Below are positions 29,096 to 55,057 of a DNA stretch of 64,000 nt, in pieces. The position numbers and the translations under genes are program-made. The notes beneath the pieces are model-generated. The model was not told where the DNA came from. It saw nothing but the letters and a program-made list of their open reading frames with translations, and did no database searches. The DNA is from Acidobacteriota bacterium (GTDB lineage Bacteria > Acidobacteriota > Thermoanaerobaculia > Multivoradales > JBCCEF01): positions 28,343 to 92,342 of the forward strand of contig JBCCHV010000019.1 in assembly GCA_039028635.1 (NCBI GenBank), read 5' to 3'. Every line of letters starts with the position of its first letter. Within the stretch, counting starts at the first letter, position 1.

Positions 29096-29168
29096 GGTTC
29101 GATCCCCCTTGACGGTCAGTCCATCCCCAACGATTAGCAACGACAGCGAGCGATCACCGGTCCCGCCC

Positions 29169-30770
29169 TCAGGCGAGGTCCGGACCTGCGGTGAGGAACG
29201 GCCGAAACCGCTCCTCCAAGAACAGACGACGGGCGACGTCGCGGGCCTGGCCGAAGGACGGCGCCGGAGCCCCCAGCTCGCCTTCGATGCGGCGCAGCTC
29301 GTCGTCGAACAGGCGCGACACCAGGTCCGCGGTGACCTCGGACCCGTCGTCGAGGACGACCCGATGACGCAGCTGCTGCCAGACCTGAGCGCGCGAGATC
29401 TCGAGGGTCGCGAGGTCTTCCATCAGCCCATCCCAGGCGACACAGCCGACGTCCCGTAGCCAGCCTTCGAGGTAGGCGATGCCGACCCGCAGATTGGTGC
29501 GCAGGCCGGTGACGGTGCGCGGGCCACCGCCGCGCGGCAGCAGATCCGGCGGAGCCGACAGCTCCGGCATCACGTCGAGCTGGTGGCGGCGCGGGAAAGC
29601 GGTCAGGGCGGGGGCGATGAAGTACGGATGGGAGACCCAGCAGCCGTCGTGGCCCTGGGCCGCTTCGGCCCCCTTGTCGGCCATCACCTTGGCGGTCTGG
29701 CGCTCGCGCTCCTCGGCCGTGCGTCCGGGCGTGAAGGCCGCCATGCCACCCATCGCGAAGGCACCGTGGCGGTGGCAAACGTGCACCAGGTAGTCGGCAT
29801 AGGCCTTCATCCAGGGGCTTTCCATGGTGACCGCGGCGCGATCCGCCAGCACCCGGTCGGGATGCTCCTTCAAGACCTTGATATCGCTGAAGATCTTGTC
29901 CCAGCGGCCGACGTTGAGGCCGGCGGCGCGGTCCCGCAGCTGCCACAGGATCTCCTCGACCTGGAAGGCCGCCGGCAGGGTCTCGATGAGGAAGGTCACC
30001 CGCAGGCAGCCCGCCGCCAGCCCGAGGGACTCCTCGAGGAGGCCGAAGAGGCGATGCCACCAGGCGGCCTCGCGATGATGCTCGACCTTCGGCACGTAGT
30101 ACTTCGGCGTCCGCCCCTGCTCGAGCAGCTCGCGGGCGGTCCAGAAAACCGCCAGGGCGAGGTCGAAGAGGCCGGCGCAAACCGCCTCGCCGTCGACCGC
30201 GACATGGTCTTCGTCGAGATGCAGGCCGCGGCAGCGCACCATGATCAAGGGACGGTCCGCAGGCTCCAGACGATAGACCTTGGCCGGCCGCTCCGCCGTC
30301 GCCGGCCGCTCATGACTCAAGGTGCCCGCGACCGCCCGGTCGAGGTTCTGGACTCCCTGGACGACGTTTGCCCAGCACGGCTTCATGGAGTCCTCGAAAT
30401 CGAGCATGGCGGCGTCGGCGCGAGCGCCATCGGCCTGCCGGCTGAGCATGTTGATCACCATCTTGGGATCGTGGATCGGACCGGTGATCTCGACCCGCCG
30501 CTGCAGCAGGTCGTCCGGCAGCGGAGCGATCTGCCACTCGCCGCGGGCCGCCGGCAAATCGTCGACAAAGCCGGGCAGAGCGCCGCCGTCCCAGCGCTGC
30601 TGGCGCCGTCGTCGGGCCGCCAGCAGCTCCCGGCGCTCGCCCTCGAGGGCACGGTGCAGGCGGACCAGAAGCTCTTGGACGGGCTGCGGCAAGATCTCCT
30701 CAGCTGCCGCAGTGCGACTTCCAGCGGCCCAGCCGAAGGAAGAGACCTCTCGGATCGATTCAACGGGCAT
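29169..30770 (-). CDS. aceB: Malate synthase A
   Basis: Malate synthase A family (…RRVEITGP…DFEDS…); start at MPVESIRE with GAGGAGG RBS 5 nt upstream (the ORF-track 64-codon extension is rejected). Confidence 0.9.
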
Positions 30771-30798
30771 TTCATCCTCCTCGCATGACGATGAAAAC

Positions 30799-30827
30799 AT
30801 CGTAGCGGCAACGCCGCAACGCGTCAA
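30799..30827 (-). promoter_or_regulatory. Candidate sigma70-type promoter of aceBA (TTGACG - 17 nt - TACGAT)
   Basis: On the minus strand: -35 TTGACG (30822-30827), 17-nt spacer, -10 TACGAT (30799-30804), about 25-30 nt upstream of the aceB ATG at 30770. Confidence 0.45.
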
Positions 30828-31022
30828 GAGAGGGCAAAATGCCGCAATAAGACGTGAGACCTCGGACGCTCCGAAGGGCGATACGGCTACGAGGTCGACA
30901 CCACTGCCCTCGCCGAAGAGCCGGATCCACGCGCAACAGCGCCAAGAGCCCAAGAAAGCCACCCTCGAGGGGCTCCTCGGCGGGGAGTGAGCCGGACGCT
31001 GCGACCGCCTGCGCTGCTGGAC

Positions 31023-32789
31023 CTATTCCACCGCGGCCGACCAAGCCGTGGTGTTGCCGGTTTCGAAGCCATCGTCGAAGATCTCGCGGTTGCCCACGGC
31101 ACCGATGAACTCGTCGAATCCCAAGTCGAAGGTCCCGATGCCATTGATGTTGCCGGCGCTGTCGTAGCCTCGCTGCTGCAGGTCGATGTCGGTCCAGGTA
31201 GGTAAGAAGTTCTCGTTGCAGAAATCGATCGCGGGAGAGGTCGAGTCGAGGTGCAGGTTGCCGCCGTCGGGGTCCACGAAGCGCGGATCCGCGCCGACCA
31301 CCGAAACCCCCGCCACCATGTTAGTGGCGTCGTCCATCAACAGGCACCACCCGGTGTTGCCGGGACCTTCAGAACCCCGGGTGTCCTCCAGAATGCTGGC
31401 TTGGATGTCGATTGTCGCGCCGCTCGACGAGCTCGCCGCAAAGCTCCAGGCGAGCGTTTGACCGCCGCCGTTGACCAACCAGGCGTTGCGCGCCAGCGAA
31501 AGGAAACCGGCCTCGACCTGCGCTCCGTTGGCCGCCTCGAGAACCGCCGAACCACGGTTGTTCCAAAATGCCATGCCTTCGAGCAGAATGCGAGAGGAAG
31601 GTCCATTCGCGCGCATCACCGGTCCGGGAGAACCGCTGCCATAGTTTTCATTCACAAAACCTCGCGACAATTCAGCCCGGCCCCCGGAGTCGACATAGAG
31701 CGCGCTGCCGTTCAGGGCATCGCAGCGATTGCCGACCAACGTGTTGCAAAAGGGCGCCTCAGGACATGCCACGGAACTCGATCGATTGAGCCTGAGAGCG
31801 GCCCCGTCCACCACCGCCACACCGCCACCACCGAACAGAGCCTCGTTGTCATGGATCTCGAGATTCGAGGCTTGCGCCGTCGTTCCGGCTCCCTGGAGGT
31901 AGATACCGCCGCCAAAGTCGGCGAGGTTTTCTTGAATCCTGGTCGCCGCCACTGCATCACCTCCAGCGAATAGGTCAGCCCCTGTCGCCAAAAAGATTCC
32001 ACCGCCATTGTCGCTGGCCCGGTTTTGCGCCACCAGCGCTCCGGGACCTAATGCGATAGTGCACCCCTCGCTGGCCGAGATCCCCCCTCCGTTGACCGCC
32101 CGATTGCGCAGTACCCGACCGTTGATCTGGATGTGAACCCCATGACCGGTTCCTGCCCTGGAAAGAATGCCACAGGAGATACCGCCGCCCGACTGGTCCG
32201 CATTGTCCGGGCCCACGTTCTCATCGATCAATGATCTGAAATCGACCGAGATCGTCGCCCCAAAGGTCGCGCGCATCGCCGGCGCCCCGTGAAAGATCTC
32301 GACGTTCTCCAGATCGACGCGAGCACCGGAAATGTCCACGGCGATACGGGTCGAATCGTCGCTGGGGTTTTCTCCGACAATGAACAGATCGCGCAGAATC
32401 ACCCGACGCTGCTGGACACCGTTGCTCAGGATCGCAAAGGGCCCCCAGAAATTTCCATTGCGACTGCCTATGACCAGAGTCCGGTGTTGACGTGCATCTC
32501 CTCCACAGCTCAACCAGCCTCCACTGATGACCAAGAGATCATCGCTTTGAGCGTCGTTGATCAACACATCTTCCGGGAAGAGCTCGTTCGCCGTCAGACG
32601 GATCTCATGAGCTCCGGCCACGGAATTCGCCAGATTCACGGCGTTCTGGATCGAAGTGGCATCGCAGTCCGGGCCCATACCAACGCGATAGATTGCAGCT
32701 TCGATCGGACCACAGGCCAGCCCGGTCAAGAAGAAACCCAACAGAGCACCGACCCTCCGGAAGACGGTGCAGGATCTTGAGGTGAGCAT
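31023..32789 (-). CDS. Secreted right-handed parallel beta-helix (pectate-lyase-fold) protein, paralog 1
   Basis: 588 aa; signal peptide; many Gly/Asn-rich beta-helix rungs (NGGGISASEGC, DNGGGIFLATG, DFGGGIYLQGAG); conserved C-terminal module ...IFDDGFETGNTTAWSAAVE. Confidence 0.75.
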   Translation of the reverse strand: MLTSRSCTVFRRVGALLGFFLTGLACGPIEAAIYRVGMGPDCDATSIQNAVNLANSVAGAHEIRLTANELFPEDVLINDAQSDDLLVISGGWLSCGGDARQHRTLVIGSRNGNFWGPFAILSNGVQQRRVILRDLFIVGENPSDDSTRIAVDISGARVDLENVEIFHGAPAMRATFGATISVDFRSLIDENVGPDNADQSGGGISCGILSRAGTGHGVHIQINGRVLRNRAVNGGGISASEGCTIALGPGALVAQNRASDNGGGIFLATGADLFAGGDAVAATRIQENLADFGGGIYLQGAGTTAQASNLEIHDNEALFGGGGVAVVDGAALRLNRSSSVACPEAPFCNTLVGNRCDALNGSALYVDSGGRAELSRGFVNENYGSGSPGPVMRANGPSSRILLEGMAFWNNRGSAVLEAANGAQVEAGFLSLARNAWLVNGGGQTLAWSFAASSSSGATIDIQASILEDTRGSEGPGNTGWCLLMDDATNMVAGVSVVGADPRFVDPDGGNLHLDSTSPAIDFCNENFLPTWTDIDLQQRGYDSAGNINGIGTFDLGFDEFIGAVGNREIFDDGFETGNTTAWSAAVE

Positions 32790-32906
32790 CGATTCAGCCT
32801 CCTAGAGAGATTGGACATCGGCCGAAGGGCCGGTGGCCCTTTTCGGGGACCGTCGCCCTCGCCCTCCGGCCGTTACCTCGGTTCGTCTACCGGACCCGAG
32901 GCGCTA

Positions 32907-34673
32907 CTACTCCACCGCCGCTGACCAAGCCGAGGAATCGCCGGATTCGAAGCCGTCTTCGAAGATCTCGCGGTTGCCCACGGCACCGACGAACTCGTCG
33001 AATCCCAAGTCGAAGGTCCCGATGCCGTTGATGTTGCCGGCGCTGTCGTAGCCTCGCTGCTGCAGGTCGATGTCGGTCCAGGCGGGAAAGAAGTTCTCAT
33101 TGCAGAAATCGATCGCCGGCGAGGTCGAGTCGAGGTGCAGGTTGCCGTCGTCGGGGTCCACGAAGCGCGGATCCGCCCCGACCACCGAAACCCCCGCCAC
33201 CATATTGGTGGCGTCGTCCATCAGCAGGCACCACCCGGTGTTGCCGGGACCGGCAGAACCCCGGGTGTCCTCCAGAATGCTGGCTTGGATGTCGATTGTC
33301 GCGCCGCTCGACGAGCTCGCCGCAAAGCTCCAGGCGAGCGTTTGACCGCCGCCGTTGACCAACCAGGCGTTGCGCGCCAGCGAGAGGAAACCGGCCTCGA
33401 CAGTCGCCTCGTGGACCGCCTCCAGCACCGCCGAGCCACGGTTGTTCCAAAACGCCACCCCTTCGAGCCGCAGGTGCGAGAAGGCTCCCTCGACCCGAAT
33501 CACCGGCCCCGGTGAAGGAGAACCCACGTTTTGGTTGACGAAGGCGCGCGAAATCTCGGCACGCCCCCCGGGGGCGACGTACAGGGCACTGCCATTGAGC
33601 GCATTGCAGCGATTGCCGACCAAGGTGTTGCAGTACGGCGCGTCGGGGCAGCTCACCGCACTCGACCGGTTGAGCCTCAACAGGGCATTCTGATTCACCA
33701 GCACCCCGCCACCGCCGAAGAGGGCCTCGTTGCCGTGGATCTCGAGGTTCGAGGCTTGCGCCGTCGTTCCCGAGCTTCGCAGGTAGAGCCCGCCGCCATA
33801 ATCCGCCAGGTTGGAGTGGATCCTGACCGTCGAAACAGAGTCGCCGCCGGCAAAGAGATCGGCACCGGTCTCCAGATAGAGGCCACCGCCACTTCCGCTA
33901 GCTTCGTTGGAATGGACGAAGGCTCCCGGCTCCAGAACGACCGTACAGCCGTGGCGGGCCAAGATGCCCGCTCCATTCACCGCTCGATTGAGCTGCACCC
34001 GACCGCGAATTCGCACCACGGTGTTCTCACCGCTGTTCGCGTCGGAACGGGAGCCACAGGAGATCCCCCCTCCGAGGAATTGATCATTGTCCGGCGAAAA
34101 ATTCTCCGAGATGGTCGAGGCGGAGTCAACGAAGACGTTGGCCCCGAAGAGCGCCTGAAGTCCCGGTGATCCATGGTAAATAATCGACGACTCGAGCTCG
34201 ACCCTGCCCCCCCGGACATCCACCGCGACCCGGGTCAGCTCCTCACCGGGAGTCAGGGTGAGCCATTCGCCCACGATGAACAGGTTGCGCAGAATCACTC
34301 TGCGCTGCGGCGCACCGAGATCGGATCTGGCGATTTGCAACGGCCCCCAGGTGTTGCCGTTGGGCAACCCCGCGATCCCCGTATCCCCGGACGCCGTCGA
34401 GCTGGTGCAACGGTTCCAGCCACCGCTCAAGACCAACCGAGCCGCGTTGATGTCGTTGTCGATTCGGACATCCTCGCGAGCGAGCTCGTTCTCCGTCAGG
34501 CGAATTTCGTGCTCGCCCGGAGCATTCGCCCATTCGACCGCCTGCTGGACCGAGGACGTATCGCAACCGGCACCGGTGCCGACGCGAAAAATGGCGCCCT
34601 CGGCGGAACCGCCAAATCCCAGGGCACCCGCCGCCAGCAAGAATCCGCAGGCACTTTTCAAGCATCCAGACAT
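32907..34673 (-). CDS. Secreted right-handed parallel beta-helix protein, paralog 2
   Basis: 588 aa; same architecture as paralog 1. The C-terminal ~190 aa are nearly identical and the N-terminal part is about 60% identical. Confidence 0.75.
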   Translation of the reverse strand: MSGCLKSACGFLLAAGALGFGGSAEGAIFRVGTGAGCDTSSVQQAVEWANAPGEHEIRLTENELAREDVRIDNDINAARLVLSGGWNRCTSSTASGDTGIAGLPNGNTWGPLQIARSDLGAPQRRVILRNLFIVGEWLTLTPGEELTRVAVDVRGGRVELESSIIYHGSPGLQALFGANVFVDSASTISENFSPDNDQFLGGGISCGSRSDANSGENTVVRIRGRVQLNRAVNGAGILARHGCTVVLEPGAFVHSNEASGSGGGLYLETGADLFAGGDSVSTVRIHSNLADYGGGLYLRSSGTTAQASNLEIHGNEALFGGGGVLVNQNALLRLNRSSAVSCPDAPYCNTLVGNRCNALNGSALYVAPGGRAEISRAFVNQNVGSPSPGPVIRVEGAFSHLRLEGVAFWNNRGSAVLEAVHEATVEAGFLSLARNAWLVNGGGQTLAWSFAASSSSGATIDIQASILEDTRGSAGPGNTGWCLLMDDATNMVAGVSVVGADPRFVDPDDGNLHLDSTSPAIDFCNENFFPAWTDIDLQQRGYDSAGNINGIGTFDLGFDEFVGAVGNREIFEDGFESGDSSAWSAAVE

Positions 34674-34865
34674 AGCATTCTCCCAGGCGAGATAGGGTTG
34701 ACTGCACGGCCCTCGAGGGGCTCCAACGCTCTTTCCTGGACCGTCGCTCGTACTCGGCGGGTGTTACGCCTATACTCTCGAGAACTCCTCCAAGCCCCGA
34801 TGACACACTTCGCTCCATCCCCCCGAGAGACTTCGAAAGGGACCTCGGAGAGCCGCCAGCAAGTG

Positions 34866-37800
34866 ATGCCAGGCCAGGTCCGATGGCTCCGGGCACTGCT
34901 GGGGGCCGCGCTGTTGGCAGCGGGCCCTCTGGTGGCGCAAGCCCCCTTGCCCGCGGCGGGCGGTGTCCTCGACCTCGACCTCGATGCCGGCGAGGAACGG
35001 GCCTTCTCGGTCCCGTTATCGGCCGGAGAGCTCCTCCATGTCGTGGTCGAGCAGAGGACCGCAAACGTCGAGCTGGAGCTGTTCGAGGCTGCCACTTCGG
35101 TGAGACGCACCGACCTCCGACCCTGGGCCTGGGGCGAGGAGTTCCTGTTCGCCCTGCCGACGGAGGAGACGCTCTATCGGCTGGTGGTTCGATCGCTGAG
35201 CAGCCGCGCTGGCAGCGCTCGCCTGCGCGTCGCAAGTCGTCGCCTCGCCAGCAGCCGAGACCGGCTACGCTTCGAAGCCGAGTCCGCCTACGCTTCCACC
35301 CGCTTCACCCGCGCCCAACGGGGCCTGGGGCTGGTGACCGACCAATGGGTCCAGCGGGCCGAACGAGCCGCCCGGATGTTCGAGGCTCTCGATCTCCCGG
35401 AGCGGCAGGCCTTCGCCCTCAAGCGGGTGGGCGACCTCCAAATTCAGCTCGGACGCCCACTCGACGCCCTGGCTCCGCTCGAAGAGGCCATCGCCATCGC
35501 CCAACGCGACGGCTACCCCTGGGCCGAGTGCCGAGCGCGGCTCACCTGGGCGGAGGCGGTCTACGCCCGCAGCGTCGATGAAGCGCTGGCCGAGGAGGAG
35601 CGCATTCTCTCCCTGACCGCCGCCGGAAACCTCCTTCCCTGCCAGCTATCGGTGATCCGTCTCCTGATCTACGACCTCAATCAGAAGGGCGACCACCGGC
35701 GATCGATCGAGCTCTTCGAACAGGCCTTGCCGATTGCCGACCAGCTCGATGCTCCCTGGTACCACAGCGCCTTGCACATGAATGTGGGCAGCGCCTATCT
35801 CGCCCGCGGCCAACTCGTCGAGGCGATCGAGGTCTTCTCCATCGCCCACCAGGGCTATCGAGATCTCGGCGACCATCGCAGCGCCATCGCCGCTCTCGAC
35901 AACCAGTTGACCGCCCGCCGGGCTCTCGGCGACGAGGAAGGCTTGCTCGCAGCCCACCGGAAGATCGTTGCCTTCGTTGCGAATCACGGCGAGATTCAGG
36001 ACGTTCTCGGCGCCCAGGTCAACTACGGTGAGACCCTCCTCGACCTCGACCGGCCAGCCGCCGCCGAAGAGGTCTTCCGACGCGCCTCCAGGCGCGCGGA
36101 GGGCGCTCCCGTGGAGGCCCAGGCGCCGGTCTGGAGAGGACTCGGTCAGGCGCTCTTGGAGAGCGGAGCCCTGAGCGCTGCCAAACCCTTCCTGGATCGC
36201 GCACGCCGAGCTCACCAGGCGTCCGGCAACGTGCCTCGTACCATTCGCGACCAAGAGCTCCTGGGACGCTGGCAGGAGGCATCGGGCCAGCTGCAAGCTG
36301 CCACCAGCTCCTACCGAGCCGCCGCCGGCCGGGCGGCGCAGCTTCATCTGCCCCCTCTCGAGCTGAGCTCGCGAGTGCGGGCGGCGGAGCTCCTCTGGCG
36401 GCTCCAGGACCCACGGGCCCAGGCCGAGCTCAAGCGCGCCATCGACCTGGTCGAAGACGTTCGCAAGCGCCTCTTCACGGATCGCTTCCGATCCTCCTCA
36501 GCCAAGCTCCTCCGCCGGGTCTACGATCTCGCCCTCGAAATGGAGCTGTCGCCACGCGAATCATCGGCGACCGGAGGCCAACCTTCCGCTGGTCAGATCG
36601 AGCGCGCCTTCTTGCTCGCGGAACGCTCCCGCGCGCGCTCTCTGAGGGAATTTCTGGAGGCCTCCCGAAAAGCCGTCACGGCGACCATCGATCCACGGCT
36701 CGTCGAACGCGAAAGCCGCCTCCTCGAGCGCGCCGAAGGCCTTGCCCAGGAGCGCTTCGAGCTCCTTCAGGAGCCGCTCGATCCGAACCCCGAAAGGCTC
36801 TCTGAGCTCGATGCCGAGATCGCGGAAACGGAGCTCGGTCTCGAAATCCTCGCCGCCGAACGGTTTCGACGCGACCCCCGGCGGGCGTCCCTCCTCGATG
36901 CTCGGCCGCTCGACCTCACCGAGGCCCAAGAGAGCCTCGGTGAGCGCACCCTGGTTTCCTATCACCTGCTCGAGAACCGGCTGCTGGTCTTCCTGCTGAG
37001 CAGAGAGGGCCTGGCGATGGAGACGCTGCCGGCGGGCGAAGACCTCCCCGCCACGGCCATCACCCTTCGTGAAGCCCTGAGTCAACCTTCACGCTTCACG
37101 GCACGCTTCCGCGACGCATCCCTGCACTTGGGTCGTGCCCTCTTGACGCCTCTCGCCGGCCATCTCGACGGCAAACGGCTGATCATCAGTCCCGATGGTT
37201 GGCTGCACCACGTACCCTTCGAGACCCTCCTGCTCGAGGCACCACAGGCCGAGGACTCATGGGCCGACCTCAAATTCGCCGTCAAGGCCTACGAGATCAG
37301 CTATGCGCCTTCGGCCGGGGTCATGGCCAGCCTTGGGCAAAACTCGAGCGGCGAGCAGAAAAGCACCCTGGTCGCCCTCGGCGACGCCCTGGCGAACGGT
37401 GCGGAGCCGGTAACCGACGGGCCCGGAAACGCCAGCGGCAGGGGCCTCTTCGGCTCTTTGCCCCACGCTCGGGAGGAGGTCGAGAACCTCATCGGACTCC
37501 TTTCGCCCGAGAGCGTGGACCCCGCGCCTGTTGAGATTCAAGGCCATCTCTTCGTCGGCCACCGAGCCACCGAAACGGTGGCCCGCTCGGACCTCGCGAA
37601 GGCGGCTCGTTTCCTTCACTTCGCCACCCATGCCTTCGTCGATTCCGACATCACCAGTCAATCGGCGCTGGTCCTGACGCCGGATCACGCCCACGACGGC
37701 CTCCTGCAACTCGGCGAGATTCTCCGTCTCCGGTTCAACGCCGACTTGGTCACCCTCTCCGCCTGCCAGAGTGCCGTCGGCCGGCAGCAGAGCGGTGAGG

Positions 37801-38039
37801 GGATCATGAGCTTGGCGCGAGGCTTCCTTTTCGCCGGAGCCTCGTCCCTGGTGGCAAGCCTTTGGGAGGTCTCGGACCGTGCCACCGGCGACCTGATGGG
37901 CAGTCTCTATCGGGGAGTCTTGGCAGAGAAAACGACAGCAGAGTCCTTGCGCGAGGCCAAGCTCGAGCTGCTGCAGAAGCCGGCATCGGCGCATCCCTAC
38001 TACTGGGCTCCGTTCATCCTGATCGGCGACCCGAACTGA
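34866..38039 (+). CDS. Periplasmic TPR-repeat CHAT-domain protease (caspase-like)
   Basis: Signal peptide MPGQVRWLRALLGAALLAAGPLVAQA; long TPR-like helical region; C-terminal CHAT domain with catalytic His (FLHFATHAF) and Cys (VTLSACQSA). The upstream in-frame part of the ORF-track ORF overlaps the divergent gene and is rejected. Confidence 0.8.
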   Translation: MPGQVRWLRALLGAALLAAGPLVAQAPLPAAGGVLDLDLDAGEERAFSVPLSAGELLHVVVEQRTANVELELFEAATSVRRTDLRPWAWGEEFLFALPTEETLYRLVVRSLSSRAGSARLRVASRRLASSRDRLRFEAESAYASTRFTRAQRGLGLVTDQWVQRAERAARMFEALDLPERQAFALKRVGDLQIQLGRPLDALAPLEEAIAIAQRDGYPWAECRARLTWAEAVYARSVDEALAEEERILSLTAAGNLLPCQLSVIRLLIYDLNQKGDHRRSIELFEQALPIADQLDAPWYHSALHMNVGSAYLARGQLVEAIEVFSIAHQGYRDLGDHRSAIAALDNQLTARRALGDEEGLLAAHRKIVAFVANHGEIQDVLGAQVNYGETLLDLDRPAAAEEVFRRASRRAEGAPVEAQAPVWRGLGQALLESGALSAAKPFLDRARRAHQASGNVPRTIRDQELLGRWQEASGQLQAATSSYRAAAGRAAQLHLPPLELSSRVRAAELLWRLQDPRAQAELKRAIDLVEDVRKRLFTDRFRSSSAKLLRRVYDLALEMELSPRESSATGGQPSAGQIERAFLLAERSRARSLREFLEASRKAVTATIDPRLVERESRLLERAEGLAQERFELLQEPLDPNPERLSELDAEIAETELGLEILAAERFRRDPRRASLLDARPLDLTEAQESLGERTLVSYHLLENRLLVFLLSREGLAMETLPAGEDLPATAITLREALSQPSRFTARFRDASLHLGRALLTPLAGHLDGKRLIISPDGWLHHVPFETLLLEAPQAEDSWADLKFAVKAYEISYAPSAGVMASLGQNSSGEQKSTLVALGDALANGAEPVTDGPGNASGRGLFGSLPHAREEVENLIGLLSPESVDPAPVEIQGHLFVGHRATETVARSDLAKAARFLHFATHAFVDSDITSQSALVLTPDHAHDGLLQLGEILRLRFNADLVTLSACQSAVGRQQSGEGIMSLARGFLFAGASSLVASLWEVSDRATGDLMGSLYRGVLAEKTTAESLREAKLELLQKPASAHPYYWAPFILIGDPN

Positions 38040-38220
38040 CCTGGCCGTCTCTCCAACTTGCAGCGACGAGAATGTATGTCCCTGAATCTGCGGCGTGATC
38101 CCACCCTCCTGCTCCTCGCACTCCGGCGACGACGACGCCGGCACGCCGGGGGCGACCGCCATGCAGCTTCAGAACCGAGACCCTCTCGCCGAGAAACCTG
38201 GTGAGAAATCCGGGCTAGCC

Positions 38221-38805
38221 ATGGCCATCGAGGGAATCGAAGCGACGGACCAAGACCGCCTCACCATCGAGGGCTTCCTCGCCGGCGACCGTGAGGCCGT
38301 ACAACAGGTGCGCAGCTGGATTCGACTCGCTGCGGGGCGATACCGTCGTTTCCTGGCAAACGACCTCGAGGATCTCGAGCAAGAGACCTTGACCACCCTG
38401 CTGGTCAAGCTGTCGAGCCAGCACTTTCGCTTTGCGAGTCGACTGGAAACCTATGTCAGTCGCATCACGCACTACAAGTGCATTGATCGCCTGCGGGCGC
38501 GCTCCCGACGGACGTGGGTCGATCTCGAAGAGCTGGGTCTGATCGCTGCGGAGCGATCGGCCTTCGAAGCCATCAAATCCCAACAGGACCGCGAAATGGC
38601 GATTCGGGTCGTCACCAGCATGACGCGAAGCTGCCAGGAGCTCTGGTCCATGATTCGCCAGGGACTGAGCTATCTCGAGATGGCGCGCCGCACCGGCGTG
38701 GCGCCAGGAACCCTGAGGGTCCGGGTCCTCCGTTGCCGGCAGAAAGCTATCGCCGAGCGTGAACGGCTGATGGCATCTGAAAACCCGCGGGGAGGTAACG
38801 AATGA
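38221..38805 (+). CDS. ECF-family RNA polymerase sigma factor
   Basis: sigma70 region 2 (FLAGDREAVQQVRSWIRLAAGRYRRF...ETLTTLLVKL) and region 4 HTH (LSYLEMARRTGVAPGTLRVRVLRCRQKA). Start could also be the ATG at 38161. Confidence 0.75.
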   Translation: MAIEGIEATDQDRLTIEGFLAGDREAVQQVRSWIRLAAGRYRRFLANDLEDLEQETLTTLLVKLSSQHFRFASRLETYVSRITHYKCIDRLRARSRRTWVDLEELGLIAAERSAFEAIKSQQDREMAIRVVTSMTRSCQELWSMIRQGLSYLEMARRTGVAPGTLRVRVLRCRQKAIAERERLMASENPRGGNE

Positions 38806-38925
38806 AGATCCTTAGCGACCGTCCCTTCGGAGGTGAGGGCGCCCTTCCACTGCGCCGAAGTCCCTTGGAGTCGGGACGCCGCCAACCGTCTGCTGACCGG
38901 TCTGACTCGGAAGGCAAATAGCCCC

Positions 38926-39726
38926 ATGGATTGCAAGGCCACCCGCGAGCTCTTACCTTTTCTGTTGAATGGGAGCCTGGCCGACTCCGAGCGTCGGGAG
39001 GTCCTCGACCACCTCCACCAGTGCTGGGATTGCCGGGAGGACTTGCGTCGGGCCGCCGTGGTCTGGGTTGCCACCGAGAGTCACCCGACGGCAGAGATCC
39101 TGCTCGACTACGCCGAAGGACGTTCCCTCGACAGCTTCCCGCGCGACCTGCTGGAACAACACCTCGCGACCTGCGACGCCTGCTCCAGGGCCGTCGAAGC
39201 GGCCAGCGGAGCGATGACGGCACGAGTCGCCTGGCCTGGGCCCCCGATCGACACCGCGATGAGCCCTCCGCCTCGCCGCCCTCGCCGACCCCTGCTGGGT
39301 ATCGCGGCGGGCTTGGTCTTGCTGACCGCCTCGGCAGGGTGGCTGGGTTCGCGGTTGTCCCCGGAGACCCCCGTGGCCAACGTGCACATCGCCGAATTGT
39401 CGGCAGTTCAGGAACGGGTGCGAAACCTCCGGATTGGGCGCCTCGAGATCCCGCGCTCCCAGGCGGCCGCCCTCATCCTGATCCATCCCCTCGACCTTGC
39501 AGCCGACGAGTCGACGGACGAAGTGCGATTTCGCATCGTGGTGACCGACGATGGCGGTCTCGGGGTCTTCACCCTCGAGGACCTCGAGCGCAGCGAGAAT
39601 GGTGACTTCACCCTGCTCATCCCTGCCGACACGCTGCCGCTCGGCTCGCTGAGCCTCGAGCTCGAACAGCAGATCCTTGGGGAGTGGTCGCCGGTTGGCG
39701 AGTACCAGATCCAGAGTACCAACTGA
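38926..39726 (+). CDS. Anti-sigma factor, zinc-finger (ZAS, HxxxCxxC) with one TM and a periplasmic domain
   Basis: N-terminus MDCKATRELLPFLLNGSLADSERREVLDHLHQCWDCRED carries the canonical ZAS motif; TM PLLGIAAGLVLLTASAGWLGS; directly downstream of the ECF sigma gene. Confidence 0.7.
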   Translation: MDCKATRELLPFLLNGSLADSERREVLDHLHQCWDCREDLRRAAVVWVATESHPTAEILLDYAEGRSLDSFPRDLLEQHLATCDACSRAVEAASGAMTARVAWPGPPIDTAMSPPPRRPRRPLLGIAAGLVLLTASAGWLGSRLSPETPVANVHIAELSAVQERVRNLRIGRLEIPRSQAAALILIHPLDLAADESTDEVRFRIVVTDDGGLGVFTLEDLERSENGDFTLLIPADTLPLGSLSLELEQQILGEWSPVGEYQIQSTN

Positions 39727-39754
39727 CCGCGCCGGGTCCTGAACCCGAACCGAA

Positions 39755-39795
39755 TGGTACGGCTAGGAGGACTTGAACCCCGAACCTCGAGTTCG
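39755..39795 (-). repeat. Partial copy of the tRNA-Arg 3' end (acceptor/T-arm, att-like direct repeat)
   Basis: TGGTACGGCTAGGAGGACTTGAACCCCGAACCTCGAGTT versus the tRNA-Arg sequence at 44604 TGGTGCGGCTAGGAGGACTTGAACCCCCGACCTTGAGTT: about 36/40 identical, same orientation; no matching 5' half of a tRNA follows. Confidence 0.6.
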
Positions 39796-39932
39796 GCTTG
39801 CGCATCTCCGCCAAGGGCAGGAAGAGCTTCGTCTTCCAATACCGCAACGCCCAGAACCGGACACGCCGGCTCACCCTCGGGGCGGCTTCGCGAACCGCAA
39901 TCGGCCAGCGCGAAGGAGTTGCCCTAGGCGAT
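39777..39932 (+). pseudogene. Remnant of a P4-type tyrosine integrase (N-terminal arm-binding/DUF4102-like segment only)
   Basis: In-frame translation EFGLRISAKGRKSFVFQYRNAQNRTRRLTLGAASRTAIGQREGVALGD resembles the integrase N-terminal motif G-L-Y-L-R-V-S-P-S-G-S-K-S-W-V-F-R-Y-R...R-R-x-T-L-G. No upstream Met; the frame runs out of the tRNA fragment and loses similarity after about 50 codons. Confidence 0.5.
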
Positions 39933-40199
39933 GCGCTGGCGCAGCATCAGCACCGCCACCGCGGCGACGGCGCCGACGGTCAGGTGACCACACCAGGCGA
40001 TCGCACCCTGCGCCACCGGCAGGAACCAGAGGTCGACGACGAGGGCCAAGGCGAGCAGCGAGAACCCGGCGACGCGCAGCCCCCGCGACGCACCGGCGGA
40101 AAGGCGGCGGCCGAAGAGATCCCCCTGATGACGGGGCATCGAGCCACACAGGCAGGTGAATCCCAGCCCGGTGAAGAAGATTCCCAGCAGGGCGCTCAC
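39924..40199 (-). CDS. Small integral membrane protein (DUF3325-like, PepSY-associated)
   Basis: 91 aa with 3 predicted TM helices; its ATG overlaps the PepSY-TM gene stop (ATGA). Confidence 0.5.
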   Translation of the reverse strand: MSALLGIFFTGLGFTCLCGSMPRHQGDLFGRRLSAGASRGLRVAGFSLLALALVVDLWFLPVAQGAIAWCGHLTVGAVAAVAVLMLRQRIA

Positions 40200-41749
40200 G
40201 AGGCAGCGTCCGAAACCACCTCGCCGGCGCGCTGCCGCGGCCGACGACGCACGGTGGCCGATCCCCGCGCCGCCGTGCGCGCCGCGGCACCGTAGGCGAG
40301 AGCGAGGACCAGCATGGTCAGGTCGAAGACCACGAACACCCAGTCACCGGCCCGTAGGCTGGGCAGCAAACCCCGGCTGGTCGACAGGGCGTTGACCAGC
40401 GGCACCGCGGCGAACAGCAGGGCCGTGGCCAGCAAGGACTCGGTCCAGGCCCGCCGGGCCGGACGCACCAGCGCCCACAGGGCCACCCCACCCCAGGCGA
40501 GGAAGAAGCAGTGGACCTCCCAGTCGGAGCGCGACGGCAAGGCCGGCGGCAGCAGCCGGTTGGCCAAGAAATAGCCGGCCAGCGCCGCCCCGAGGCCGGC
40601 GATGGCGGCGATGTTCAATCGCTCGACGACGCGGAAGCCGAAATGGGGCCGCTCCGGATCGGGCAGGCGATTGCGCCGGCGGACGGTCCACTGCACCAGC
40701 CCGGTGGCGATCATCGCGATTCCCAGCAGACCGGAGAGGAAATAGAGCCAGCGCAGCGCGAGGGGAGCGAAGCGCCCGGCGTGGAGGCCGACCAGCACGC
40801 TCTCGGTGGCGTAAGCGCCGCCGCGCCGCGCCGTCTCGCCGACGGCCTCGCCGGTGGCGCCGCGGTAGGTCAAGGTCGGCGTGCGGGTGCCGACCGTCGC
40901 GCCCCGAGAGCGCCGCGCGTGGACCAGGGCGTTGGCGTCGCCCGGATGCTGCACCTGGAGGCTCGCCAGAGCGGCGCCGTCCCAGACGGCGCTGGCCTGC
41001 TCGACGATCGTCGAGAGGGGAACCAGCTCGGCCGCCTCGCCCGCCGCCTCGGCCGCCGGTGGCCGAGGAAAGGCGGCGGCGAAGTAGGCCGCGCGGTCCG
41101 GAAAGTTGGCGCGAGCCCCGAAGGGCATGTACTGGTGGGCCAGGGTCACCAGCCCCGTATAGGTGATCATCACCACGAAGGGCAGGGCGAAAATCGACGC
41201 CATGTTGTGGCCGTCGTACCAGGAGATCAGGCCCTTGCGCAGGGTCAGGGAGAAAAAGCGGGCGAAGACCTTCTTGTGGGTGATGACGCCGGAAATGATG
41301 GCCAGCAACATCGCCATGGCGGCCACTCCCACCACGTACCGCGCCCACAGCGCCGGCACATAGTGCAGGTCGAAGTGGAAGCGATAGAGGAAGTTGCCGC
41401 CCCGGGTCGAGCGCACCGTCACCGCCTCGCCGCGACCGTCGAGCAGTTGCGAGCCGCTCCCCTCCGCGCCGCGCCAGCGGACCTGGCTGCGCACCCGGCG
41501 CTCGCTGGGCAGGGTGATGGTCCACGAATCGGCCTGCGGCGCCACCTGCTGCAGATAGGCCACGGCCTGATCGGCGGCCGCCCCCTGGGAGGCCCGCGGC
41601 GCCGCCAGCTCCGGCTCCATCCAGCGGGTGATCTCGTGCTGAAAATAGGCCGAGGTGCCGGTCGTGAACATGGCGAGCATGAGCCAGCCCAGGAGCAGGC
41701 CGGTCCAGGTGTGGAGCTCGGCCATCGACCGCCGGAAGGTCTTTTTCAC
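40196..41749 (-). CDS. PepSY-associated TM helix protein (PiuB-like iron-regulated membrane protein)
   Basis: N-terminal KKTFRRSMAELHTWTGLLLGWLMLAMFTTGTSAYFQHEITRW is the PepSY_TM signature. Start assigned to the GTG at 41749 (GGAAGG RBS; overlaps the upstream stop as GTGA). Confidence 0.8.
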   Translation of the reverse strand: MKKTFRRSMAELHTWTGLLLGWLMLAMFTTGTSAYFQHEITRWMEPELAAPRASQGAAADQAVAYLQQVAPQADSWTITLPSERRVRSQVRWRGAEGSGSQLLDGRGEAVTVRSTRGGNFLYRFHFDLHYVPALWARYVVGVAAMAMLLAIISGVITHKKVFARFFSLTLRKGLISWYDGHNMASIFALPFVVMITYTGLVTLAHQYMPFGARANFPDRAAYFAAAFPRPPAAEAAGEAAELVPLSTIVEQASAVWDGAALASLQVQHPGDANALVHARRSRGATVGTRTPTLTYRGATGEAVGETARRGGAYATESVLVGLHAGRFAPLALRWLYFLSGLLGIAMIATGLVQWTVRRRNRLPDPERPHFGFRVVERLNIAAIAGLGAALAGYFLANRLLPPALPSRSDWEVHCFFLAWGGVALWALVRPARRAWTESLLATALLFAAVPLVNALSTSRGLLPSLRAGDWVFVVFDLTMLVLALAYGAAARTAARGSATVRRRPRQRAGEVVSDAAS

Positions 41750-42144
41750 AGGCGCCCTTCCGCCGCCAGGGAGAGCCACAGCAGAAGAGCCATGGGCCCG
41801 CCGGTGGCGGCCAGAAAAAGCCACAGCCTGGAGATCCTACGGATCGAGAAGGCCACCATCACGAGGTTCGCGAAGAGCAGGAAGGAAGCAGTGGTGGCGG
41901 CGACGCTCGCCGGCCCCGGGTCGAGCGGTAGGTAGCGGGCGGCAAAGGCCGTCGCCAAGGCGGTGTAGCCATAGTTGACAGGTATCGCCGTCAGCAGGCG
42001 CGCGACGAAAATCCAGCGCGACGGTGACGCCGGGATCTTGGAAGGTCGGCCGGGAGCGGCGGCCTGACGACGCTCGCTGGGGCTCAACGAATCCTCCTTC
42101 GGGGCCTGGGCCCGCCCGGGTGAATCCCGGACGAGCCCGTTCAT
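41746..42144 (-). CDS. Small membrane protein (DUF3649-like) between the TonB-dependent receptor and the PepSY gene
   Basis: 132 aa; hydrophobic C-terminal half; its stop overlaps the PepSY GTG start. Confidence 0.45.
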   Translation of the reverse strand: MNGLVRDSPGRAQAPKEDSLSPSERRQAAAPGRPSKIPASPSRWIFVARLLTAIPVNYGYTALATAFAARYLPLDPGPASVAATTASFLLFANLVMVAFSIRRISRLWLFLAATGGPMALLLWLSLAAEGRL

Positions 42145-42163
42145 GACTCGACCGCCGGAACGG

Positions 42164-44317
42164 TCAGAAGCGATAGCCGATGCGACCGACCACCGACCGG
42201 CCGGCGCCCGGGAAGCAGTCGCCGCGCGCCAGGCAGGTACCGTAGTAATCCTCGTCGGTCAGATTGCGGGCGTTGAGGGTGAAGCGCCAGTCCGCCGCGT
42301 CGTAGGCGAGCAGCGCATCGAGGAGCACGGTCTCGTCGGTCACCACTCGCACCGGCCCGAGCACCGAGCTGAAGCCGTTGCTCTCGCGCTCACCGAGGTA
42401 GCGAGCCCCGAAGCCGAAGCTGAAGGCGTTCCACCACGACGACCGAGGCCGATAGCGGATCCAGGTCGAGACCTGATCCTCGGCGATCGAAGGAAAGGGC
42501 AAGCCGTTGGCGTCTTCGGTGTCGAGCAGGCTCAGGTTGCCTTCGATCGTCAGCGGCCCGAGCTGGGTCAAGAGCTCGAGCTCGAAGCCCTCCGTCGTCG
42601 CGATCCCCTCCTGCTGGGAGTTGGGCTGGCCGATGAGGGCCGCCGGATTCGGCAGGTTGGACTCCTCGGTTTCGAAGTAGGCCACCGCCAGATAGGTGTT
42701 GCCGCCCGCCAGGTCGTACTTCACGCCGACCTCCACCTGCTCCCCCTCGCGCGGCTTCAAGGGGTTGCCGGTGAAGCCGTCGGTGCCGATCACCGGCTCG
42801 AAGGACTCGGCGTAGCTGGCGTAGGGAGTCAGGCCGTTGTCGAAGCTGTAGCCGACGCCGACGCTGAGCGAGGTGGCGTCGTCCGTCTGGGTGGTGGCGG
42901 CGACGGTTTCGACCTCGTCGTAGCGCGCCCCGAGGTTGAAAAACCAGCGGTCGACGGAGATCAGGTCGCTGAAGTAGAAACCCGAGTCCTCGGTGGTCGA
43001 AGGGTTGGGATCGCTGAGATTCCCGGGATCGAAGAAGATCGCCGGGACGCCGTCGAAGGTCGGGTTGAAGGGATCGATGACGTCCTGCCCGCGCAGGAAG
43101 ATCAGGGCGTTGTCGATGGTCACGTCCTGATAGGCGGCCCCGATGTAGAGCTCGTGCTGCAGAGCCCCGGTCTTGAAGCTGAAGCGCGCCCGCACGTCCG
43201 CCGCCGTCTGCTCCGACGAGGCGTCGCTGCGGTAGATGGTGCGCGTCGCCAGACCGGTGTCGCGGATCCGCGGCACGCCGGTGCCGAGGAAGTCGATCCA
43301 GGCCTGCCAGTAGTCGGCCTCGCCCTCCTGGCGCCGCACCGTGCCGCTCAGGGACACCTGGTCCGTGAGCTGGTGGGAAGCGATCAGGGTGAGGTTGTCG
43401 GAGCGGGTATCGAACAGGTTGAAACCGGGCTCGCCGTGGTAGGTGTCGCTGTCGATACGCCGGCCGTCGGCGTTGACGCACACCGCGGAGGGCACGATGG
43501 TGACATCGCCGTCGACGCAGCCGGTGCCGGTGAGCGGCAGGAACTGGGACGAGGTGTCGCTTTCGCGATCCTGGTACTCGTAGAGCAGGGTCACCCGCGA
43601 CCGCCCGTTGTCGTAGGTCAGCGACGGCATGATGATCAGGGCATCGTCGGTGACCTCGTCGACGAAGTGGTCGGCGTCGCGATAGATGCCGACCGCCCGG
43701 ACGTAGAAGTTCTCCCCCAACTGGCGATTGAAATCGGCCGCGACCTGGCCGCGGGACTGGGTTCCGAAGTCGACCAGGATCTCATTCGACTTGTTGGCGC
43801 CGGCCAGCTTGGAGACCATGTTGAGCAGCCCGCCCGGCGTGCCCTTGCCGAAGCGCACCGACGCCGGCCCCTTGAGGACCTCGACCTGCTCGAGGGTGTA
43901 GATATCCGTGCGGGTGTTGTTGTAGAAGCCGAAACGGATTTGCTGACCATCGCGATACTCGGACGCCGAGGTACCGCGGATGCGCGCCGAGTCGATCCGC
44001 GTCGCCGGCCCGAAGGTGTTGGAATCGACGCCCGCCGTGTACTCGAGCACATCGGCCAAGGTGAGGGCGCCCCGATCGCGGAACGCATCCGCCGTTTCGA
44101 TCGACAGGGAGCGGGTGGTCTCCAGAATCGGCGTCGCGCTGATCGAGGGCTCGGACTTCGGTAGCTCCCCGACCACCACCAGCTCTTCCTCGATCTTCTC
44201 GACCGGTGGCTTCGGCTCGTCGTCGGTGTCGGTGTCGGCCTCCTGGGCCAGGGCCAGCGGGCTCGCTCCCAGCACGAAGGCCAAGAGGAGCGGAAAAACG
44301 CCTCGAACTCTATTCAT
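42164..44317 (-). CDS. TonB-dependent outer-membrane receptor (siderophore-type)
   Basis: Start at MNRVRGVFPLLLAFVLGASPLALAQEA (GAGGGG RBS); plug region (ALTLADVLEYTAGV, VEVLKGPASVRFG), 22-strand barrel and C-terminal ...GRIGYRF. The ORF-track 41-codon N-terminal extension is rejected. Confidence 0.85.
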   Translation of the reverse strand: MNRVRGVFPLLLAFVLGASPLALAQEADTDTDDEPKPPVEKIEEELVVVGELPKSEPSISATPILETTRSLSIETADAFRDRGALTLADVLEYTAGVDSNTFGPATRIDSARIRGTSASEYRDGQQIRFGFYNNTRTDIYTLEQVEVLKGPASVRFGKGTPGGLLNMVSKLAGANKSNEILVDFGTQSRGQVAADFNRQLGENFYVRAVGIYRDADHFVDEVTDDALIIMPSLTYDNGRSRVTLLYEYQDRESDTSSQFLPLTGTGCVDGDVTIVPSAVCVNADGRRIDSDTYHGEPGFNLFDTRSDNLTLIASHQLTDQVSLSGTVRRQEGEADYWQAWIDFLGTGVPRIRDTGLATRTIYRSDASSEQTAADVRARFSFKTGALQHELYIGAAYQDVTIDNALIFLRGQDVIDPFNPTFDGVPAIFFDPGNLSDPNPSTTEDSGFYFSDLISVDRWFFNLGARYDEVETVAATTQTDDATSLSVGVGYSFDNGLTPYASYAESFEPVIGTDGFTGNPLKPREGEQVEVGVKYDLAGGNTYLAVAYFETEESNLPNPAALIGQPNSQQEGIATTEGFELELLTQLGPLTIEGNLSLLDTEDANGLPFPSIAEDQVSTWIRYRPRSSWWNAFSFGFGARYLGERESNGFSSVLGPVRVVTDETVLLDALLAYDAADWRFTLNARNLTDEDYYGTCLARGDCFPGAGRSVVGRIGYRF

Positions 44318-44418
44318 CTCATATCCCCTCGAACGGCACGAACCCCTCGAGATGCGAAGCTCCAAAGCAGCGCAACGGCGCGATTCGCTGCCGTCAGGAA
44401 ACTGCTGTTGATATCTAT

Positions 44419-44433
44419 TGAGACTTAGTCTCA
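44419..44433. promoter_or_regulatory. Palindrome TGAGACT-T-AGTCTCA in an AT-rich promoter region upstream of the TonB-dependent receptor gene (candidate metalloregulator operator)
   Basis: Perfect 7-bp inverted repeat inside the only AT-rich stretch (44400-44470) of an otherwise ~70% GC region, about 100 nt upstream of the receptor start codon. Confidence 0.3.
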
Positions 44434-44603
44434 TTAACATAAACCAATCAGTACCATAACAGTCCTGATTGCGGCGGACAATGCCTTCAAGGGCTTCCGG
44501 GAATGGTTCGAGGAGCCGAGATCGGACGCGGGCAGCGCCCGCCGCCGCCGGCTCGCCATGGCGAGGCGGGCGACCGACCGAGAACGGGATGAGGGAGGCG
44601 GGT

Positions 44604-44680
44604 TGGTGCGGCTAGGAGGACTTGAACCCCCGACCTTGAGTTTAGGAAACTCCTGCTCTATCCACCTGAGCTATAGCCGC
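44604..44680 (-). tRNA. tRNA-Arg (anticodon CCT), CCA encoded
   Basis: Cloverleaf folds manually: acceptor GCGGCTA/TAGCCGC, D-arm GCTC/GAGC, anticodon loop TTCCTAA, T-arm GGGGG-TTCAAGT-CCTCC, 3' ACCA. Confidence 0.85.
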
Positions 44681-44690: not shown

Positions 44691-44720
44691 ATTATACGCC
44701 CACCGGAACGACCCGGCCAA
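44691..44720 (-). promoter_or_regulatory. Candidate tRNA-Arg promoter (TTGGCC - 18 nt - TATAAT)
   Basis: Perfect TATAAT on the minus strand at 44691-44696, about 11 nt upstream of the mature tRNA 5' end; a weak -35. Confidence 0.3.
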
Positions 44721-54719: not shown

Positions 54720-55057
54720 GGCAGGCTCCGCAGGCGGCGGCCATCCCCGGAGGCGGAGTCACCGGTGCCCTCCACGACGGAGTCCTCGGCATCGGGACCG
54801 CCTCCTTCCCAGGCATCGAGGCGCGCCACGCCGCCGGGCCCGAAGGCCGCCAGAACCTGCCGGCCCGCGACCTGCAGCAGCGCGACCTTGTGCTGTCGAT
54901 CGATGGCTCGTACCTCGAGCACTTCGAGGCGGCCACCGCGGCGGCCACCGGCGACCATCAGCCGCGGCAGGAGATAACGGGTGACGATCACCGCCAGTCC
55001 CACCACCACGATCAGAGAGCCGAGGAGGCGGAGGCCGAGCACCAGGCCCTCGCTCAA
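54716..55057 (-). CDS. FliO-like small single-TM protein between sctQ and sctR
   Basis: 113 aa from a TTG start that overlaps the sctQ stop (TTGA), with GGAGG 7 nt upstream; N-terminal TM LVLGLRLLGSLIVVVGLAVIV, then GRLEVLEVRAIDRQHKVALLQVAGRQVLAAFGPGGVARL, resembling the FliO conserved region. Its stop overlaps the sctR start. Confidence 0.5.
   Translation of the reverse strand: MSEGLVLGLRLLGSLIVVVGLAVIVTRYLLPRLMVAGGRRGGRLEVLEVRAIDRQHKVALLQVAGRQVLAAFGPGGVARLDAWEGGGPDAEDSVVEGTGDSASGDGRRLRSLP

Follow-up and report, generated by a model that had tools for sequence, protein, structure and literature searches.

We propose that the segment from 39755 to 44680 of a 64-kb stretch of Acidobacteriota DNA (the whole stretch analyzed, hereafter the window) is a degraded relic of an integrative element of the tyrosine-recombinase type, which once inserted within the 3' half of a tRNA-Arg(CCT) gene, and that a four-gene siderophore operon has survived in this relic, a reading to which we assign a probability of roughly 60%. 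The islet is laid out as a tRNA gene, a stretch in the position of cargo, and then an integrase remnant that reads inward beside a displaced fragment of the tRNA. The operon and its control region fall wholly within the attL-attR interval, and it is this position that suggests delivery by the element.

The right end of the islet is an intact tRNA-Arg(CCT) gene on the minus strand (44604-44680), called by ARAGORN and scoring 61.6 bits against the Rfam tRNA model. The 3' 39 nt of this gene (44604-44642, minus strand; the tRNA-proximal repeat copy, or attL core) recur in the same orientation at 39755-39793, where a displaced tRNA 3' fragment represents the remnant of the attR core and is fused at its inner edge to an integrase stub. 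The two copies, which make up repeat family D3, are identical at 35 of 39 positions (90%) with a spacing of 4849 bp, close to the 36 of 40 that the original prediction had estimated for a direct repeat of the tRNA 3' end. When the last 45 nt of the tRNA were used as the query in an ungapped scan, 36/45 positions matched at 39755, compared with 24/45 for the runner-up in the window and maxima of 23-27/45 on 20 shuffled sequences. Likewise, the 19-mer GGCTAGGAGGACTTGAACC occurs exactly twice, even with three mismatches allowed, against an expectation of 0.00. As we read the alignment, identity begins at the encoded CCA end and breaks off at the 3' margin of the anticodon loop, and the anticodon loop is one of the two usual locations for crossover. 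The displaced fragment sits downstream (on the 3' side) of the tRNA gene, as the Islander signature prescribes. It differs from the tRNA at four positions, one of which would disrupt a T-stem pair, and was called as a tRNA by neither ARAGORN nor Rfam. Because a T-stem-breaking change is among the four, we take 39755-39793 for a decayed piece of the gene, not for another tRNA. A spacer with no detectable homology (44436-44603) separates the tRNA 3' end from the control region of the operon and does not align with the regions upstream of the related operons in loci L086 and L087; if the island model holds, this spacer would be a leftover of the tRNA-proximal arm of the element.

The stub spans about 45 codons (132 bp) on the plus strand at 39792-39923 and corresponds to a tyrosine integrase of the P4 type (Arm-DNA-bind_3/DUF4102) at codons ~28-75, with neither a start codon nor a catalytic domain. 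Against Pfam Arm-DNA-bind_3 its translation scores 24.9 bits (E 2.3e-5), slightly short of the 27-bit cut-off, over profile positions 23-52 of 83. In tblastn searches with full-length integrases, matches were confined to 39792-39923/39938 (E 1e-8 to 1e-10) and always involved residues ~28-81 of the query, and full-length proteins carrying both Arm-DNA-bind_3 and Phage_integrase domains are 50-73% identical to the stub over 30-52 residues. The stub thus bears out the predicted P4-type remnant abutting the repeat, with one correction: it is not the N-terminus proper, as the first ~27 codons are missing. It appears from its sequence to come from the interior of the N-terminal arm-binding domain and is a pseudogene fragment, not a member integrase protein. 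It begins no more than 2 nt from the inner end of the repeat and directly adjoins the stop codon of the DUF3325 gene at its other end. According to tblastn it is the only integrase-derived DNA in the 64-kb window, which contains no catalytic (Phage_integrase) domain. The expectation of an immobilized element lacking an intact integrase is therefore upheld: the element can certainly no longer move, there being no catalytic domain in the window and the stub being fused straight onto the repeat's inner edge.

We also considered a split integrase gene of the SSV/Mx8 style, in which attP lies inside the gene. This was ruled out, since the integrase frame meets a TGA within the repeat in both copies and the upstream sequence has no homology to integrase residues 1-27. 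Searches for closer relatives of the stub yielded little. Its top four phmmer matches were giant repeat proteins, which we take to be spurious; the one that was domain-scanned, P0241, is an fn3-repeat protein. A word-index protein search returned no candidate, a scan of viral contigs gave one weak locus without a tRNA, and P0271, the closest full-length integrase, when used to scan metagenomes, brought up two contigs, both short and distant. The PHROGs match of the stub is to a family of unknown function.

A tRNA gene, a same-orientation 3' fragment and an integrase together form the standard signature of tyrosine-recombinase integration, which is the principle behind Islander (Hudson, Lau and Williams 2015, PMC4383910). 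Like Islander islands, which span 2-200 kb, the islet is bounded by a regenerated tRNA gene and a displaced, anticodon-centred 3' fragment. Islander's filter would drop the interval, since it asks for an integrase gene between the two ends, where the islet keeps only the 132-bp stub. Island sizes in that work peak at 13.6 and 39.9 kb (PMC4383910); the 4.85-kb length of the islet is far under the usual size of an island, an observation that counts against an island reading.

The cryptic prophage CP4-6 of Escherichia coli K-12 has the same layout; it too is defective, and it too integrated within a tRNA gene's 3' half. There, thrW (plus strand) is followed at the far end by intF (minus strand), which starts beside the thrW 3' fragment, 110 bp from it, and reads inward; the fragment starts at the anticodon arm, as in the islet, and IntF consists of Arm-DNA-bind_3 and Phage_integrase domains. 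The two differ in that CP4-6 is 34 kb long, encodes a full-length IntF and targets a tRNA-Thr gene, whereas the islet spans 4.85 kb, targets tRNA-Arg(CCT) and retains only codons ~28-75, fused to the fragment. Among tRNA-Arg genes, argW is the one for the CCU isoacceptor. Both argW and argU are among the integrase-tRNA pairs examined by Panis et al. (2010, PMC2951348), who classed as rare the 'OD' (opposite, divergent) orientation of tRNA and integrase seen in the islet. The E. coli KplE1/CPS-53 prophage at argW (PMC2951348) is likewise a tyrosine-integrase element at a tRNA-Arg gene, but its integrase lies beside the intact tRNA in the same orientation ('STI'), while that of the islet, now a remnant, is found next to the fragment at the opposite end.

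The interior of the islet is taken up by four minus-strand genes with the content originally predicted. First is a FhuA/FoxA-like TonB-dependent siderophore receptor (42164-44317), with Pfam Plug and TonB_dep_Rec_b-barrel domains and no N-terminal signalling domain. Its open reading frame spans 42164-44440, and a start at 44317 yields a protein of 717 aa, in agreement with homologues; it is 100% identical to annotated protein P0121. The receptor scores 257.8 bits against TIGR01783 (cut-off 223.5) and matches the PDB entries for FoxA, CntO and FhuA with E from 1e-58 to 1e-46, the alignment beginning at FoxA residue 124. Next is a small hydrophobic membrane protein (41746-42144), which has no match in Pfam or NCBIfam and is conserved in the operon (54% identity to L086:3132-3479). 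The third gene encodes a PepSY_TM inner-membrane protein (40196-41749; longest reading frame to 41824) that covers the full Pfam profile (E 1.8e-57), is ~66% identical to its counterparts in L086 and L094 and has no match among solved PDB structures in a sequence-level search; we presume that it acts as the periplasmic reductase of ferric siderophores. Last comes a DUF3325 small membrane protein (39924-40199; Pfam E 7e-17), 62% identical to L086:5035-5322. All four reading frames are full length relative to their homologues, and judging by sequence the operon is intact and still looks functional.

In gene content the operon resembles hiuABC of Caulobacter crescentus, a Fur-regulated hydroxamate-siderophore system that is needed for the use of ferrioxamine and ferrichrome (PMC13001220). 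This system and FoxA/FoxB of Pseudomonas aeruginosa share with the islet a single operon in which the gene for a FhuA/FoxA-like TonB-dependent receptor comes first, those for a PepSY-family inner-membrane protein and a small membrane protein come after it, and an iron-box-like operator precedes them all; the DUF3325 protein is a candidate counterpart of HiuC. Such an operator is predicted from sequence in the islet, where the palindrome AATGAGACTAAGTCTCAAT (44417-44435) precedes the receptor gene; by analogy with the Fur regulation of hiuABC (PMC13001220) it may act as a Fur-type operator, and the L086 operon has a related motif, AAAGAGATTGCTTCTCAATA, in its upstream region. The islet operon differs from hiuABC in having four genes, with an additional small membrane protein encoded between the receptor and PepSY genes, and from both systems in that its host is an Acidobacteriota MAG. 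We rejected a link between the receptor and the neighboring ECF sigma/anti-sigma pair: the receptor has no N-terminal signalling domain, the anti-sigma factor belongs to the zf-HC2 type and not to FecR, and the sigma factor is unrelated to the one that lies beside the operon in L086 and L094.

Whether the operon was cargo of the element is a separate matter. The integration scar may be real and the operon foreign to it, having been placed there later or joined to the stub by deletions that brought in resident or other DNA, so that the tRNA gene, stub and fragment would be the rest of an unrelated element. We hold this to be possible, if somewhat doubtful. The stub is truncated at both ends, which implies that at least two deletions have remodelled the islet, that what it contains today may differ from what it originally carried, and that the junction between stub and operon at 39924, where the stub meets the DUF3325 stop codon, is itself a rearrangement joint. 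Elsewhere, the order of the PepSY_TM and receptor genes is conserved in L086, L087 and L094, and two other Acidobacteriota MAGs (L086, L094) carry the same operon as an ordinary cluster in the chromosome, flanked by an ECF sigma/vWA pair and by sigma-54 regulators; tRNA, integrase and mobile-element genes are absent from both loci. The next receptor homologues (L098, L099) are also ordinary chromosomal genes with no integrase gene nearby. Since the neighborhood of the operon differs in the two other MAGs, its location is not fixed in the phylum, a point in favor of the element model.

Composition also speaks for a resident operon as readily as for an acquired one. The original prediction had called for a comparison of 39.8-44.6 kb with its flanks, and this gave no foreign sign: the tetranucleotide distance of the islet to the window is 0.0108, below the mean of 0.0136, and 87% of equal-sized stretches deviate more, which places the islet among the most host-like 4.85-kb stretches in the window. 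Its GC3 (0.82-0.91) equals that of the SLC13 transporter gene, the FHA gene and the malate synthase gene, and in composition the operon cannot be told from core genes. Host-like composition fits long residence or a compositionally similar donor, and fits a resident operon equally; deviant composition is not obligatory for old islands. What argues against a later arrival is the placement of the complete operon and its control region inside the attL-attR interval, where no transposase, insertion-sequence end or flanking duplication was seen and a repeat search of the operon flanks found no direct or inverted repeats beyond chance. Deletions within islands are, moreover, far commoner than the insertion of a complete operon exactly into one. 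Of the predicted old element that delivered an iron cassette, the integration signature stands, while for delivery the composition check was negative.

We sought relatives of the locus using the flanking SLC13 transporter in 185,579 species genomes and a set of 5.8 billion proteins. The best non-self matches were 68-74% identical and none was syntenic. At the ten SLC13 loci inspected (among them L001, L081-L085 and L089-L091) no tRNA lies beside the gene, and an empty tRNA-Arg site was found in none of the SLC13 relatives inspected. A 39-nt degenerate pattern spanning both repeat copies had zero matches in metagenome contigs, and a tRNA 21-mer had zero in viral contigs. The receptor is 74-75% identical to its Acidobacteriota homologues, similar to the 70-74% of the flanking SLC13 gene; these levels are compatible with vertical descent of the operon, the homologues of the two genes not being tied to the same genomes. 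Beyond the Acidobacteriota relatives, the receptor homologues that carry an organism name (at most 62% identity) are from Pseudomonadota, and many matches carry none. A bolder version of the cargo model, which we regard as unlikely, is a minimal mobile iron-uptake cassette: a small tRNA-Arg-targeting element with a siderophore-piracy operon as its payload would have introduced to Thermoanaerobaculia-like Acidobacteriota a module of the hiuABC kind that is known elsewhere chiefly from Pseudomonadota.

The deviant DNA left of the repeat (31.0-39.7 kb) raises another possibility, namely that the islet is just the end nearest the tRNA of a larger or composite island, and the left flank an older, tandemly arrayed island that no longer has a far repeat of its own. 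This flank encodes two 588-aa paralogues, a CHAT-TPR protein, and the ECF sigma and anti-sigma factors. Its tetranucleotide deviation is the highest in this half of the window (0.018-0.023 against the mean of 0.0136), its GC content is lower, its GC3 is 0.71-0.80 compared with 0.82-0.94 elsewhere, and tandem arrays at a single tRNA gene are known (PMC4383910). The window has, however, no third copy of the tRNA 3' end (the best other match, 24/45, is at chance level) and no second integrase trace, and the deviation may stem from the peculiar Gly-rich and TPR proteins; we judge a composite island very unlikely. We can all but dismiss the notion that the 39-nt copy is a tRNA pseudogene fragment produced by local duplication or rearrangement and that the integrase-like stretch is a chance resemblance, as the sub-threshold Pfam score and the fn3-repeat phmmer matches might suggest, given that genuine two-domain integrases match the stub always through the same residues, that the stub starts within 2 nt of the inner repeat end, and that the repeat stops at a canonical crossover position in the orientation that integration requires.

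In line with the model of a decayed integrative element, we propose the following history. Crossover in or near the anticodon loop would have rebuilt a complete tRNA at 44604-44680 and left the original tRNA 3' half displaced at 39755-39793, the distal end of the element. There, a P4-type integrase gene would have read inward from the displaced fragment, as in CP4-6. A later deletion may then have taken away the first ~27 codons of the integrase together with its promoter and the arm region, clipping the inner edge of the core, and a second may have removed everything from codon ~76 on, possibly with further element DNA. The displaced fragment would subsequently have drifted, accumulating four changes in 39 nt. 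With the recombinase gone and attR damaged, excision is no longer possible. The surviving operon would pirate hydroxamate siderophores, with the FhuA/FoxA-like outer-membrane receptor taking in the ferric siderophore and PepSY_TM, DUF3325 and the second small membrane protein freeing the iron, probably by periplasmic reduction as in FoxB and HiuB/HiuC. Transcription would probably start from an iron-repressed promoter with a palindromic operator.

The islet is a real yet ordinary degraded genomic islet of a known kind, and its importance beyond annotation is small. As a decayed tRNA-gene island it is a clean and precisely bounded case in a poorly known, uncultured Acidobacteriota lineage, and it suggests that tRNA-Arg(CCT) is a target of P4-type integrases in this lineage, as in enterobacteria. 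If the operon was truly cargo, it would also document the spread of xenosiderophore uptake modules between phyla. For annotators, it illustrates that scars of this sort escape island finders that require an integrase, and that an integrative origin is compatible with host-like composition. Upstream of the tRNA gene itself, a consensus scan picked out a sigma-70-like promoter on the minus strand (TTGGCC-18-TATAAT, 44691-44720), a pattern match only, at 10 of 12 positions.

The window holds a single tRNA gene, a tRNA-Arg(CCT) found with ARAGORN at 44604-44680 on the minus strand (61.6 bits with Rfam). The original prediction of a direct repeat of its 3' end is borne out: a copy of the 3'-terminal 39 nt (44604-44642 in plus-strand coordinates) lies 4849 bp away at 39755-39793, in direct orientation, and matches at 35/39 positions. 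When the window was scanned with the last 45 nt of the tRNA, the best match was this site at 39755 (36/45), well clear of every other site in the window (at most 24/45) and of the top matches in 20 shuffles (23-27/45). With three mismatches permitted, a 19-mer from the shared part still finds only these two sites (0.00 expected). In tRNA terms, the shared block runs from the encoded CCA end through the acceptor 3' strand, T arm, variable loop and anticodon-stem 3' strand, and its far limit is the 3' edge of the anticodon loop. Because one of the four differences would disrupt a T-stem pair, we consider the fragment a decaying piece and not a second tRNA gene.

Immediately inside the fragment, the plus-strand translation of 39792-39923 is FGLRISAKGRKSFVFQYRNAQNRTRRLTLGAASRTAIGQREGVA. 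This stub falls in Pfam family Arm-DNA-bind_3 (E 2.3e-5; 24.9 bits, against a cut-off of 27; profile positions 23-52 of 83). With phmmer, run exhaustively against 1.84 billion representatives, there were 36 matches at E <= 1e-3. The top four, giant proteins built of repeats, were discarded; P0241, the one of them that was scanned, has fn3 repeats. In the remainder, stub residue 3 aligned to residue ~28-36 of the match. Four full-length matches of 386-429 aa (P0259, P0260, P0270 and P0271) have the architecture Arm-DNA-bind_3 plus Phage_integrase and, searched back on the window, gave 39792-39923/39938 as their sole match (E 1e-8 to 1e-10), through integrase residues 28-81 at 50-73% identity. 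No catalytic-domain-like sequence was detected in the 64 kb with these full-length integrases. The P4-type integrase remnant expected beside the repeat is thus real by homology, but it is an internal piece and not the N-terminal end as first described, lacking the first ~27 codons. Homology to integrase starts within 2 nt of the inner end of the repeat, and the repeat carries a TGA in the integrase frame. The alternative of a split integrase gene that contains attP, known from SSV and Mx8, was rejected on the grounds of this in-frame stop and the lack of N-terminal homology.

Taken in the direction of tRNA transcription, the features are the tRNA, a four-gene siderophore-uptake operon in the same direction, the integrase stub in the opposite direction, the fragment, and then the anti-sigma, ECF sigma and CHAT protein genes. 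The integrase adjoins the intact tRNA in most known pairs, and the opposite-divergent and same-orientation-integrase-first arrangements together make up less than 8% (Panis et al., PMC2951348). The layout seen here is among the rarer shapes, and an integrated element was therefore initially doubted. Exactly this layout, however, occurs in CP4-6 of E. coli K-12, where thrW lies at 262871-262946 (+), the prophage reaches 297205, intF, encoded on the minus strand, starts at 297096, and a thrW 3' fragment (anticodon stem to CCA) starts 110 bp past the intF start. As IntF has the same two domains, Arm-DNA-bind_3 and Phage_integrase, the layout is a known one for this type of integrase. Compared with CP4-6, the islet between the two repeat copies is missing ~100-200 bp of arm DNA and 27 codons between fragment and integrase gene, and more than 300 codons at the other end of that gene. 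Losses at both ends imply at least two deletions: the first, on the fragment side, would also have clipped the att core, while the other would have removed the >300 far-end codons. Since it has lost its recombinase and its attR is damaged, the segment can no longer move, in agreement with the old, immobilized integrative element originally proposed. We put the probability that this is a genuine scar of a P4-type element integrated at tRNA-Arg at roughly 0.85-0.9.

All four genes predicted between the repeats are present and full length, on the minus strand and so in the tRNA direction. The TonB-dependent siderophore receptor (42164-44317, 717 aa, identical to annotated protein P0121) scores over the TIGR01783 cut-off; among solved structures it matches FoxA, CntO and FhuA best but lacks their N-terminal signalling domain. 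It is followed by a small hydrophobic membrane protein of no family (41746-42144), a PepSY_TM protein (40196-41749) with no sequence-level match among solved structures, and a DUF3325 protein (39924-40199), the last two assigned by Pfam search. The closest characterized system is hiuABC of Caulobacter, likewise made up of receptor, PepSY and small membrane protein genes; it is under Fur control, and the use of ferrioxamine and ferrichrome depends on it. The FoxB reductase was the model for its PepSY protein (PMC13001220). The palindrome AATGAGACTAAGTCTCAAT (44417-44435), which lies upstream of the receptor gene, is a possible iron-responsive operator in Acidobacteriota, and a related motif, partly conserved, precedes the corresponding operon (~730-760) in another Acidobacteriota metagenome-assembled genome (MAG), at locus L086.

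The repeat-bounded interval contains the whole operon together with its control region, a position that favours the operon as cargo. Composition says nothing on this point: k-mer and codon usage gave no foreign signal, with a tetranucleotide distance to the window of 0.0108 (mean 0.0136; 87% of equal-sized windows more deviant) and a GC3 of 0.82-0.91, on a par with the flanking SLC13 transporter gene (0.94), an FHA gene (0.87) and malate synthase (0.84). The source is an uncultured, Thermoanaerobaculia-like Acidobacteriota MAG, and the nearest SLC13 homologues are 68-74% identical with none beside a tRNA, so no empty site is demonstrable. The same operon gene order occurs in two other Acidobacteriota MAGs, at L086 (receptor 75%, small protein 54%, PepSY 66% and DUF3325 62% identical) and L094, flanked by an ECF sigma/vWA pair and sigma-54 regulators, with no tRNA or integrase around it. 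It also occurs in L087, a 10-kb contig with two adjacent siderophore modules at 119-9541: one reads receptor-DUF3325-small-PepSY_TM, and the other, receptor-small-PepSY_TM-DUF3325, is closely related to the operon in the window. Receptor homologues beyond these are no more than 62% identical, those named by organism are all from Pseudomonadota, and the two inspected are chromosomal genes that stand alone. These observations are consistent with movement of the operon within and between phyla, and just as consistent with its long residence in genomes that have been shuffled. Delivery of the operon by the element is the most economical reading, unproven, and we lean modestly towards it. That the rearrangements which destroyed the integrase gene also placed the operon between the scars is the main rival, which we regard as unlikely though a serious contender. 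That the islet is part of a composite island with the left flank, a reading that draws on the deviant composition of this flank at 31.0-39.7 kb, is improbable; neither the scan for the tRNA 3' end nor the full-length integrase search found a supporting repeat or integrase. In every reading, the islet belongs to a known class of objects and is of low general interest.

The deviant part of this half-window, ~30000-39750, has tetranucleotide distances up to 0.023 (mean 0.0136), GC 0.64-0.66 and GC3 0.71-0.80, in contrast to the host-like islet. It includes two tandem 588-aa paralogues of no Pfam family (31023-32789 and 32907-34673, both minus strand), 69% identical overall, rich in GGG(I/V) repeats and with GC3 of 0.71 and 0.79, below that of the rest of the window; over the final ~160 residues they are nearly identical, suggestive of recent gene conversion. 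At 34173-39726 (+), a 1288-aa TPR and CHAT-domain protein precedes an ECF sigma and a zf-HC2 anti-sigma factor, apparently as one module, unrelated to the siderophore receptor, which has no signalling domain. A second deviant stretch lies at ~54000-61000 (distance up to 0.023, GC 0.72-0.73). Finally, a plus-strand ORF at 27767-29137 has GC1 0.87 and GC3 0.69, opposite to the pattern of real genes in the window, and the true gene here is probably the overlapping minus-strand ORF at 27818-29140.
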